A DNA stretch of 64,000 nt from Eledone cirrhosa (Eukaryota): contig OZ024740.1 of the NCBI GenBank assembly GCA_964016885.1, positions 176,204,001-176,268,000 of the forward strand, written 5' to 3'. The position numbers and the translations under genes are program-made. Within the stretch, counting starts at the first letter, position 1, and every line of letters starts with the position of its first letter. Below are positions 20,202-23,923 of the stretch, in pieces. The notes below the pieces were generated by a model, which did no database searches, had not been told where the DNA came from, and worked only from the letters and a program-made list of their open reading frames with translations.

Positions 20202-20237
20202 GTGGCGGCCCACAAATATTGAAGAAGATAGGAAAGT
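20202..20237 (+). CDS. Micro-exon B1 (36 nt): GGGPQILKKIGK
   Basis: cctattttcag|36 nt|gtaagt (consensus donor), phase 1-1. Confidence 0.8.
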
Positions 20238-20688
20238 GTAAGTTGATATATGATTTCTTTTATGTTTTCTTTATATTAAAGGCGACATATTGGTAGTATC
20301 GGTAGAGCGTCAGGCAGCATGTTTGCGGCATAGAGTTACAGCCCCTTTACTGTCAGAGTTCAAATCCCGCCAAGATTAACTTTGCCTTTCCTCTTTACAG
20401 ACTCGATAAAATAAAGCACCAGTAATTCACTGGGGTAATTGCTGGCCTTGTGCCAAAAGTAGAAACAATTATAATAAACCCATATATTTCAACTGTGCCG
20501 GGGGACTACTGTGGATATGGGCACATACTTCTCTTGTAGACCCCAAACCAATACGAAATAATAAAGTAAAATAACGAGAAAAATAGTAAAAAAATCTCTT
20601 CATAAGACGAACATAAATATTGCATATATAGATGAGGAATTTTGCTAGATTCTTGTTCTATCTTGTAACTTAGGCTTTTCATTGCACT

Positions 20689-21303
20689 CTACGGATGTGA
20701 GACATGGACCCTGTACAGAAGGCTCCTGAAGCAGCTGGAACGGTTCCACATGCGCAGGCTGCGGTCAATCATGAACATCAAATGGCAGGACAAGGTCTCC
20801 AACCTCGAAATTCTTGACATGGCTGAGAAAACCAGTGTCGAAGCTATGATACTGAAGAGCCAGCTTCGGAGGGTGGGACATGTCATCCGGATGGACGATC
20901 ACTGGCTTCCGAAGCAACTGATGTATGGGGAACTCTGTTCGGGGAAACGAAAGCGGAGCAGGCCTCTCAAGAGGTTCAAAGACTGCGTGAAGTCCAGTAT
21001 CAACAACACTGGAATCGCCCCAAAACAACTCGAGTCCCATGCTCAGGACAGGACAGAGTGGCGAGCCCTAACCAGACGCGCCAAAGACTCTTTTGAAGAG
21101 AAGGGGCGGGCAGAGGTCACTGAGACCCGTGAAAAGAGGAGAAAGACATCAACAGCTGCCCCAAGCGACTCCGGTCTCTTCCACTTCCCCCTCTGTCCCC
21201 GGACCTAGAAGTCAAGCATCGGCCTCCACAGCCACTTCGTGCCCACGACAGGCGGGAACTAAAACAAGGAAGATGTCATCGTTTACGATCGACAACCAAG
21301 AGA
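20689..21303 (+). mobile_element. RTE-clade LINE 3' fragment
   Basis: YGCETWT...LERFHMRRLRSIMNIKWQDKVSN...QLRRVGHVIRM...LPKQLMYGEL. Absent at the paralogous sites near 30900, 51150 and 60895. Confidence 0.85.
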
Positions 21304-21509
21304 TATATGTCTATTTTGATGTCTGAGAGAATTTTTCAAAAGCTAAATAGACGTAATTTCGAAGGTGTGTAATGATGCCCTTGATTTGTATAAGTTCTAT
21401 GGTATATGGGGTAAATGTAGTGATATCACGTGACACTATTCCACAATCAAATGTAAGAGCCTATAGTCACTTAGTTAATGAAACAATCGATAGGTATACG
21501 GTATTCCCT

Positions 21510-21860
21510 CTTCTTCTTCTTCTTGAGAAGGTCATGCACGCGGAATCCTCAAAACCTCCTTCCATCGAATCCTGTTAGAAGCAACCCTCTCCAACTGATC
21601 CGTCTGGATCCCCAAATGAGACCAACTATGTTCATGGATGTTATCCAACCATCTTGTTCGGGGTCTACCCCTGAGTCTCCTGCCATTTGGTGTTGCCTGT
21701 AAAATCTGTCCAGCGATTCTCTCCTGAGATATTCTAATTACATGCCCAGAGTATCGGAGCTGTGATCTCTCCCTTCGGAGAAGTAGCGGCTCTACCTGGA
21801 GTGACTCTATTATATATCTTTCTTTCTTCCCATTAATTTTTTTTAATAGTCTCTGTAAAC
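21510..21860 (-). mobile_element. RTE-like 3' fragment with (GAA)n tail; paralogues near 31170, 39650, 43590 and 61085
   Basis: IIESLQVEPLL..RERSQLRYSGH...RLRGRPRTRWLD followed by GAA repeats. Confidence 0.7.
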
Positions 21861-22482
21861 AATACTTTTTTCTCTTCTTAGTATTTGACTTTATTGCACT
21901 TTATCGCGAGCTTTATATTTTGCCCGGGATATTCAATACATAAATATAATGGAAATATAAATTCTCTACAAGTCACACATTTTCTGTTTGATGGCCAAAC
22001 ATTGGACAGTGTTATCTTCAGAAACTGTGTTTACATGATCATAACCAGATGGCTAGATATTTTCCCACGATCGCTAAAGCCATTTATATATGATATATAT
22101 GTACATATAGATATTTTTCTGAGTTTGTGCAGAGGTCAATACTTTTAGTAGCAAATTATCATTATATAATACATACATGATGGCTGCTCCCTCGTTATCG
22201 AGTATGGCCATTGCACAATATACCATTATTAATAATTATTAACTAATTCAACATCATCGGTAACTACTGGACTGCAGGTTTTATGTCGGAGTTATACCAG
22301 TTTCCTGAGTTGCCGTCTCCTAGAAGAATGCCCTGACAAAGGCTAGGGGTCCTTCACTCCCAGTGGCTAAATCGCGCGATCGGGTATCCCGCATATACAT
22401 ACACATACACATGCACACATGCATATGCATATATACATATACATACATATATATATACATATACATACATATATATATACAT

Positions 22483-22537
<55 letters not shown>

Positions 22538-22782
22538 CATATATACATATACATATACATATGTAAATGTGTATTTACACATTTTGGATGGCCGTTGACT
22601 CTTATGAGTTCTTCCGCCCTTTGTCAGGTTTTGTTTTTTGTCTTGCAGGGTGTCCAAAATCACCCTCTCACGAAGTAAACATACATACATACATGCATAC
22701 ATGGATACATAATACATACATACATACATACATACATACATACATACATACATACATACATACATACATACATACATACATA

Positions 22783-23108
22783 CAGGAGAAGGAGGACATC
22801 TACGGACCATTGATGAGGAGTTTACAAATCCAGTAGCCAAGATACACCTTTAGCTTCATACCCATCATTATGGAGCTACGCGTTATATACCAACCCGCTT
22901 GGACCAAAGTATGACTGAATTTGGATTTGCGGACTAAGAGCGCAGCTCCCTAATTCATAGTCTACAAATGGCTGCGATAGCTGGCACCTTCAAAATTTGC
23001 AAAACATTCTTGTGATTCAAGGGATGACAATTTCTTTTCTTTTACAACCTTGCCACCAGGAAGGTGGTCGGTCAAAAAAATATACTCGAAATTAAGAGAA
23101 AGAGATAA
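22783..23108 (+). mobile_element. 3' end of an RLE-type (R4/Dong-like) retroelement inserted in (CATA)n
   Basis: EKEDIYGPLMRSLQI...YTFSFIPII, homologous to the C-terminus at 54817; flanked by CATA repeats on both sides. Confidence 0.7.
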
Positions 23109-23151
23109 CATACATACATATATATACATGTTCATATTTTTATATTTTCAG

Positions 23152-23190
23152 CTTTTGTTCAGTTGATAAACAATCTCTGCATAAGATATG
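23152..23190 (+). CDS. Micro-exon C1 (39 nt): [13 protein letters not shown]
   Basis: atattttcag|39 nt|gtaagg, phase 1-1. Confidence 0.8.
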
Positions 23191-23878
23191 GTAAGGCAAT
23201 AAATCATTTAAAAACTATATGTATGTATGATTTTATTTCGAACAGAAAATGAGAGCATGAATAGGTGTTATTTCAGGTGACGGCGTCAGCAAAACATAAC
23301 TACACAATCTCGTAACTTTTCTAGAACAGTATATGTACGCATATTCTAATTGTTAATCATAAACTACATCAAGCAAGAGCACAACATATTGTTTGCGGCA
23401 CAAGTTCAATATCACATGTTGATAAACCGACGTGTATACATGAATACACTCGTTTAAGTACAATGTAAACTGCCATGATGCTAGAGGTTTCTGACTTCCT
23501 GTCGGTGTAATGTGTGTTCAGTGGTCAAGACACTTAAATATGAACAGATGTGCCTAGAATACCCTATATAATTAGCTTGGATGGTATAATAATGTGGAAT
23601 CGTCGAGTAAATTTGCTGTTATATGAATATAGATTTTACGAGTGGAGCACTCTTTGCTGGGACTAGATTTATCCCTTAAAACGTTTAGCTTTATATTTAG
23701 TAATGTTTTAACGTTTAGCTTTATATTTACTCTTTTACTCTTTTACCTGTTATAGCCATCCGGCTGAGGCCTTGCTGGGGCACCGCCCTTTAGTAATGTT
23801 TTAAATTTAATTCGAACACGGAACAATGTATGGAATATATTAATATCAACTTAATACAATTTTTTAAAAACTTTTCAG

Positions 23879-23923
23879 GTCGCCGCATTAACTGTCATCC
23901 ATGGACATTACGGCGTTATAATA
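23879..23923 (+). CDS. Micro-exon D1 (45 nt): GRRINCHPWTLRRYN
   Basis: cttttcag|45 nt|gtatgt, phase 1-1. Confidence 0.8.

Follow-up and report, generated by a model that had tools for sequence, protein, structure and literature searches.

In a 64,000-nucleotide (nt) stretch of the Eledone cirrhosa genome (the window; NCBI GenBank assembly GCA_964016885.1, contig OZ024740.1, positions 176,204,001 to 176,268,000, forward strand), and in the 200 kb examined on either side of it, we find an array of about 100 phase-1 micro-exons of 36-66 nt, spread across ~190 kb of repeat-rich DNA, which likely encode in frame a single long secreted repeat protein. Recurring within this array is a cassette of three exons, B, C and D, that encodes an amphipathic helix and two cysteines. 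An earlier reading of the window sequence (the original prediction) had taken the cassette for an antimicrobial or toxin-like peptide, a label that is unproven. The account that we tentatively prefer, while giving it somewhat less than an even chance, is that B-C-D is an embedded helix-plus-disulfide self-association module in one secreted repeat protein of ~1,350 amino acids, of the type found in mucus, cement or cuticle. Its observed basis is the anatomy of the exons, one open frame shared by all of them, one signal-type exon, the duplication of units, and the retention of a hydrophobic face, the cysteines and a tryptophan.

The B-C-D cassette

The window contains four cassettes, located as originally predicted, each with B, C and D exons of 36, 39 and 45 nt bounded by AG and GT; further copies lie downstream (Table 1). 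All three lengths are divisible by three and each exon starts and ends in phase 1, the only frame without a stop in any of the 6 B, 6 C and 6 D copies. When the exons are joined, as genomic splice signals alone lead us to infer, the junction codons specify serine between B and C and glycine between C and D in all five full modules. In the 3.0-Gb genome the D exon has six matches, every one at this locus. D1 and D4 are 100% identical (their downstream introns 95%), while most other D pairs share 73-87%; exon-level gene conversion, or selection for that variant, is a possible cause.

The predicted amphipathic helix is borne out in all five full modules: the best 18-residue hydrophobic moment (0.60-0.75, with X at split codons) exceeds that of shuffled sequences (p = 0.0004-0.026, 5000 shuffles per module), at a best angle of 94-96 degrees. 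The two cysteines, encoded on separate exons, are likewise 8 residues apart in each of these modules, as proposed. A membrane-spanning helix was also considered and is ruled out, the maximum 19-residue hydropathy being just 0.03-0.78. The claim of a cationic peptide applies to the window copies, in which modules 1-4 have net charges of +6 to +8 (the 18-residue helix itself only +1 to +3), but charge is not obligatory, since module 5 has a net charge of 0 and yet the highest hydrophobic moment. Similarly, the residues described as invariant all hold among the four window copies, but I-L, G-R and Y vary once the downstream copies are added. Where module 5 has a hydrophobic residue, the four window copies are invariant in 10/14 columns, compared with 7/23 of the polar columns (p = 0.02). 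Across cassettes the hydrophobic face, both cysteines and the tryptophan are retained, and surface residues and charge vary; helix shape is conserved between copies, charge is not.

The original prediction further envisaged a processed secreted peptide. Secretion agrees with the predicted signal peptide described below; release does not follow, because no dibasic site is conserved across copies at either end of the cassette, and module 5 is devoid of dibasic sites. The G-R-R motif, interpreted as an amidation and dibasic cleavage signal, occurs in three of the four window D copies (3/6 overall) and is situated between the two cysteines, inside the loop. Exon D continues for nine residues past the second cysteine, and the frame runs on into later exons. 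The arrangement of an amidated precursor, with a conserved glycine and dibasic end and an upstream cleavage site, is absent.

Architecture of the gene

A single exon 14 kb upstream of the window is predicted, heuristically from hydropathy and the -3/-1 rule, to encode a signal peptide, in support of the original prediction. This exon has only three matches in the genome, none of them within the array; one gene is therefore the simplest model, and several tandem genes are ruled out by the lack of a second signal exon in the array. The gene model comprises 102 phase 1-1 exons after the signal exon, mostly of 39 nt, encoding about 1,370 amino acids with no internal stop codon within exons; 264 of the 5151 possible forward exon joins produce a stop.

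The predicted protein begins with the signal peptide and a short leader, followed by cationic His/Tyr/Arg repeats (the A exons of the window) interleaved with four cassettes, 66 Thr/Pro/Tyr/Ser repeats, module 5 and the partial module 6; cassettes account for about 15% of its residues. The window A exons carry a net charge of +39 in 177 residues (Tyr 20%, Arg 19%, His 18%, Lys 6%), and the downstream A-type block carries -24 in 793 (Thr 18%, Pro 13%, Tyr 12%, Ser 10%). Among the 13 window A exons, 25/30 tyrosines have a lysine or arginine within two residues, a figure without a null. The A-type catalogue holds 87 micro-exons, of which 80 were scored at 39 nt, and three more copies lie outside it. 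A second frame is open in 33/34 distinct A exons (window 12405-58326), probably because of their low Leu/Ile/Val/Met content; it was rejected, being closed in E3, E4, 5/6 B and 6/6 C exons. Also discarded was a 39-nt candidate exon at -8942, which resembles a dispersed repeat. Downstream, at 151591-151674, two A exons have fused through loss of their intervening intron, and the resulting 84 nt are in frame.

In the mechanism that we propose, the array would be spliced, with exon skipping, behind the one signal exon, and the product would be secreted with its cassettes kept within the long chain rather than freed. The Thr/Pro block may be O-glycosylated, its content of Thr, Ser and Pro being suggestive only, and the oppositely charged blocks could provide cohesion in the manner of a block copolymer. 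Histidine may bind metal, tyrosine or Dopa might form cross-links, and the helices could pack through their hydrophobic faces.

Evolution of exons and introns

Between copies, the introns that follow C and D share 89-97% identity, compared with 73-92% for 28 of 30 exon pairs (the remaining two are at 98% and 100%), and in the four window copies 34/120 exon columns are variable versus 7/90 in the flanks. The array has grown by duplication of exon-plus-intron units. Uniform introns with varied exons also occur in the SmPoMuc mucins and in spider silk genes (PMC2576457), so the pattern is not specific to defence peptides. The omega values (B-C-D, about 1.25-1.5; window A exons, 1.9; downstream repeats, 0.76-0.89) do not differ significantly from 1; positive selection on the cassette and the window repeats is thus suggested only. 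At window 32050-32435, immediately upstream of the 66-nt A exon, a 43-nt intronic unit has been amplified nine times.

Weighing the structural and alternative roles

Several observations weigh against a structural protein of full length. Two in-order junctions yield TGA, both involving exons with weakened splice sites, so that a product of about 1,350 amino acids requires both exons to be skipped. Seven of the 87 catalogued A copies lack a splice site or the frame, and the 3' end of the gene, for which the candidate last exon is at 176922, is uncertain. The omega values above 1 for the cassette and the window A exons count here as well: amino-acid change that is not suppressed suits an arms-race peptide or neutral decay equally well as a structural protein. 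Finally, the signal exon is shared with a paralogue whose mature part is largely unrelated, and a conserved signal with an unrelated mature part has been reported for antimicrobial peptides and toxins (PMC5577615).

The structural module is preferred by a small margin to a multi-peptide host-defence precursor, which is possible but appears less probable. In this scenario, cleavage by convertases would yield cationic His/Tyr/Arg repeats and helix-loop peptides acting on microbial membranes, and exon duplication and skipping would diversify the mix. Consistent with this, modules 1-4 are both cationic and amphipathic, exon columns are more variable than their flanks, the signal exon is conserved while the cargo varies, and several window A exons contain P-R-x-Y-Y, reminiscent of mussel myticalins, which are rich in Pro, Arg and Tyr and in which the signal peptide is conserved but the mature part hypervariable (PMC5577615); secreted repeat proteins are also known from a sponge and a tunicate, where they occur in immune-type cells (PMC11703226). 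RK or RR ends 6/13 window A exons, but the other seven have no terminal dibasic pair, about two thirds of exon-coded residues belong to the non-cationic block, and the cassette lacks both conserved flanking cleavage sites and the cysteine arrangement of a Rana box. The evidence for a defence role bears on the A repeats as much as on the cassette. A more elaborate form, a splice-shuffled cephalopod defence library, seems improbable to us; it would comprise some 15 different His/Tyr/Arg peptides and several Cys-x8-Cys helix peptides on a new scaffold, produced by exon skipping under positive selection, with a signal exon common to a second micro-exon gene.

We consider it similarly doubtful that the gene encodes an effector of the reproductive system (spermatophore or egg coat) or of the venom gland (posterior salivary secretion), which would be evolving under diversifying selection and whose cassette would serve in binding. 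The conserved signal exon, the rapid change of exons and the lack of a homologue in weak searches would fit such an effector, and octopus oviducal glands produce a mucoprotein cement and express chorion peroxidase (PMC8976471). Against it, the exon-containing stretches resemble no known family in Pfam or PDB searches, and six peptide motifs had no match in one supplement file of O. vulgaris salivary-gland peptides (PMC7693380), a weak comparison because two different species may be involved.

A decaying or non-coding array, in which segmental duplications copied AG..GT-bounded stretches and translation was lost, is very unlikely: omega near 1, the dead copies, the two junction stops and the death of one of two paralogous signal exons would suit it, but one frame is open in every exon class while others are closed in several, the hydrophobic face and both cysteines are preserved, A exons with intact sites have indels mostly in frame (42 and 66 nt, with a 35-nt exception at 69779), two copies with a frameshift are also missing a splice site, and exons more divergent than introns are not expected from neutral decay.

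Comparison with known systems

In architecture, with no likeness in sequence found, the gene resembles the SmPoMuc genes of Schistosoma mansoni, in which a short exon and its flanking intron form ~1-kb repeated units with introns >93% identical and differing exons (PMC2576457); the tandem units here likewise have introns more uniform than exons. SmPoMuc has one type of 27-bp exon in up to 20 repeats, whereas the present gene has a three-exon helix/Cys cassette interspersed among about 90 A copies of several kinds. The schistosome micro-exon genes (MEGs) offer a second parallel, with a 5' signal exon, symmetrical micro-exons, a high ratio of nonsynonymous to synonymous change (dN/dS) and Thr/Ser/Pro-rich regions or amphipathic helices (PMC4671649, PMC4350168). 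The present gene has a heuristically predicted signal peptide in its 5' exon and mostly symmetrical micro-exons, slightly above the 36-bp bound of PMC4671649. MEGs are described as restricted to flatworms, of about 10 kDa and with micro-exons under 36 bp and reported alternative splicing, in contrast to about 1,350 amino acids, exons of 36-66 nt and inferred splicing here. The gene shares its construction with SmPoMuc and the MEGs, and nothing points to membership in either.

Rana-box peptides (brevinins, nigrocins), to which the original prediction compared the cassette, also combine an amphipathic helix with a two-cysteine loop (PMC6280737), and the helix is amphipathic in 5/5 and cationic in 4/5 full modules. 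In the Rana box 4-5 residues separate the cysteines and the second is C-terminal (PMC6280737). Here the gap is 8 and the second cysteine is not terminal; the Rana-box comparison is therefore unsupported. Mussel myticalins have in common with the gene that they are molluscan, with a conserved signal peptide, a hypervariable cationic Pro/Arg/Tyr-rich region and an anionic region behind it; they differ in that their genes have three exons, of which exon 2 encodes one mature peptide of 23-42 residues, and in that a Lys-Arg site is conserved (PMC5577615), whereas the present gene has about 100 exons and no one site that is conserved throughout.

Mussel foot proteins and the squid beak proteins (HBPs) are, like the predicted product, secreted molluscan proteins of low complexity, combining tyrosine with lysine or arginine, or histidine and glycine in GHG-type motifs (PMC9999432, PMC11931252). 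MFP-3 and MFP-5 of mussels contain Dopa-Lys pairs, and HBPs contain GHGxY repeats (PMC9999432). HBPs differ in their GHGxY and GAGFA pentapeptides and in having histidine as the sole charged residue (PMC9999432), while the repeats here are rich in arginine, the window A exons containing 19% of it together with 6% lysine. The gene recalls these proteins in composition only, and Dopa is putative here.

Homology and transcript searches

Protein searches used single exons as queries, mostly with intron read-through, and are accordingly weak. They returned no homologue at E <= 10 among 30, 5 and 59 candidates, none at E <= 0.001 among 1.84 billion representatives, and no usable match from Atlas. 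None of ten exon-containing stretches exceeded the Pfam cut-off; in the PDB, one weak match was obtained (a molecule named CTPR-rv4, E 0.006), with three more at E > 1 and none for the D exon. For window 23100-24000, a mostly intronic stretch that suits exons of 39-45 nt poorly, no RNA run was listed, which says nothing about expression. The three runs listed, all from one sample, resembled DNA contigs in their behaviour, and the joints displayed for them, a minority of the total, include none at an exon boundary. We found no paper on this gene, and five peptide motifs were unmatched in the literature, although supplementary transcript tables could still contain it; among the matches listed for octopus microexons, none describes such a gene.

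The gene, then, is real and apparently has not been described before; its type of architecture is already known from schistosomes. Genes like it, with about 100 exons of 36-66 nt over ~190 kb, can escape annotation and homology searches. A structural product would be a candidate constituent of an octopus secretion yet to be characterised, such as egg cement, cuticle or mucus; a processed one would represent a new scaffold for defence peptides in cephalopods.

Table 1. Exons, cassettes and related features, all on contig OZ024740.1. Coordinates outside 1-64000 are window-relative (genome position = 176204000 + coordinate), except for the last two rows, which give contig positions.
Feature	Position	Strand	Remarks
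Predicted signal-peptide exon	-14163 to -14103	+	ATG at -14163; ends in phase 1
Candidate exon E2	-11369	+	42 nt, phase 1-1
Candidate exon E3	-6516	+	60 nt, phase 1-1
Candidate exon E4	-4924	+	36 nt, phase 1-1
Intron between the four upstream exons and the first A exon	1..12404	+	
Six intact His/Tyr/Arg A exons	12405, 13476, 14796, 15319, 16823, 17469 (range 12405..18072)	+	39 nt
Dead A copy	18033	+	40 nt, donor lost
Module 1, B exon (B1)	20202-20237	+	36 nt, between AG and GT; first helix part
Module 1, C exon (C1)	23152-23190	+	39 nt, AG..GT; second helix part and first Cys
Module 1, D exon (D1)	23879-23923	+	45 nt, AG..GT; second Cys, Trp-Thr, tail
Lone B' exon	30465..30500	+	No C or D; purine-rich acceptor; TGA on joining next A exon; likely skipped
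A exons flanking a Helitron	31747, 32603, 39497 (31747..39535)	+	32603 is 66 nt with internal 27-nt duplication
Module 2	43450..46421	+	B 43450, C 45490, D 46377; truncated C remnant at 45011
A exons	47623, 48228, 48719 (47623..48757)	+	48719 without donor
Module 3	50670..53968	+	B 50670, C 53099, D 53924
A exons	57163, 57689, 58288 (57163..58836)	+	57689 donor weakened, TGA when joined to 58288; 58798 without donor
Module 4	60421..63929	+	B 60421, C 62968, D 63885; D identical to D1
Start of intron into remainder of gene past window	63930..64000	+	
Downstream A-type exons, Thr/Pro/Tyr/Ser-rich	up to about 151674		66 intact, net -24
Module 5	B 152697, C 154671, D 155497		Full cassette, net charge 0
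A exon; dead A copy	156863; 158651		Downstream of window
Module 6, partial	C 167867, D 168777		Downstream of window
Candidate last exon	176922		Candidate 3' end
Dead partial duplicate of signal exon and following intron	153182791-153182975	-	Start lost, stop present, donor lost
Intact paralogue	153240561 onward		Signal exon, then three acidic 57-nt and 14 Lys/Trp 45-nt exons, phase 1-1

Paralogues and neighbouring sequence

The signal exon matches two further places 23 Mb away, one an intact paralogue and the other a dead partial duplicate that lies 57 kb from it and is oriented away from it. The signal exon agrees with that of the intact paralogue at each of its first 33 coding bases and at 17/28 thereafter. 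In the paralogue's 57-nt exons, tyrosine stands next to runs of Glu/Asp, an arrangement that we take to be sulfotyrosine-like. Its Lys/Trp 45-nt exons sit in ~2-kb units that contain long interspersed nuclear elements (LINEs), and their 16 plus-strand matches indicate that one or two extra copies may exist. The acceptor of the 45-nt exon resembles that of E2; no likeness to B, C or D exons stood out at the paralogue locus, and its 3' end was not found in the stretch examined. Together the loci form a small family of predicted secreted proteins with a common signal exon and largely unrelated repeat cargo.

Between the A exons, a Helitron with Rep and PIF1 helicase pieces occupies window 32770-39100 on the minus strand, and a second, similar element is found downstream at about 82-86.6 kb in window-relative coordinates. 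The only clear long frame within the examined flanks that is not of transposon origin is an intronless frame of 334 codons on the minus strand (-89135 to -88134), which matches the Pfam family 7TM_GPCR_Srw (E 3e-8). Long inverted repeats, with arms of 126-218 nt that are 83-99% complementary, occur at window 4799-6202 and 9202-9870, in the intron that precedes the first A exon.

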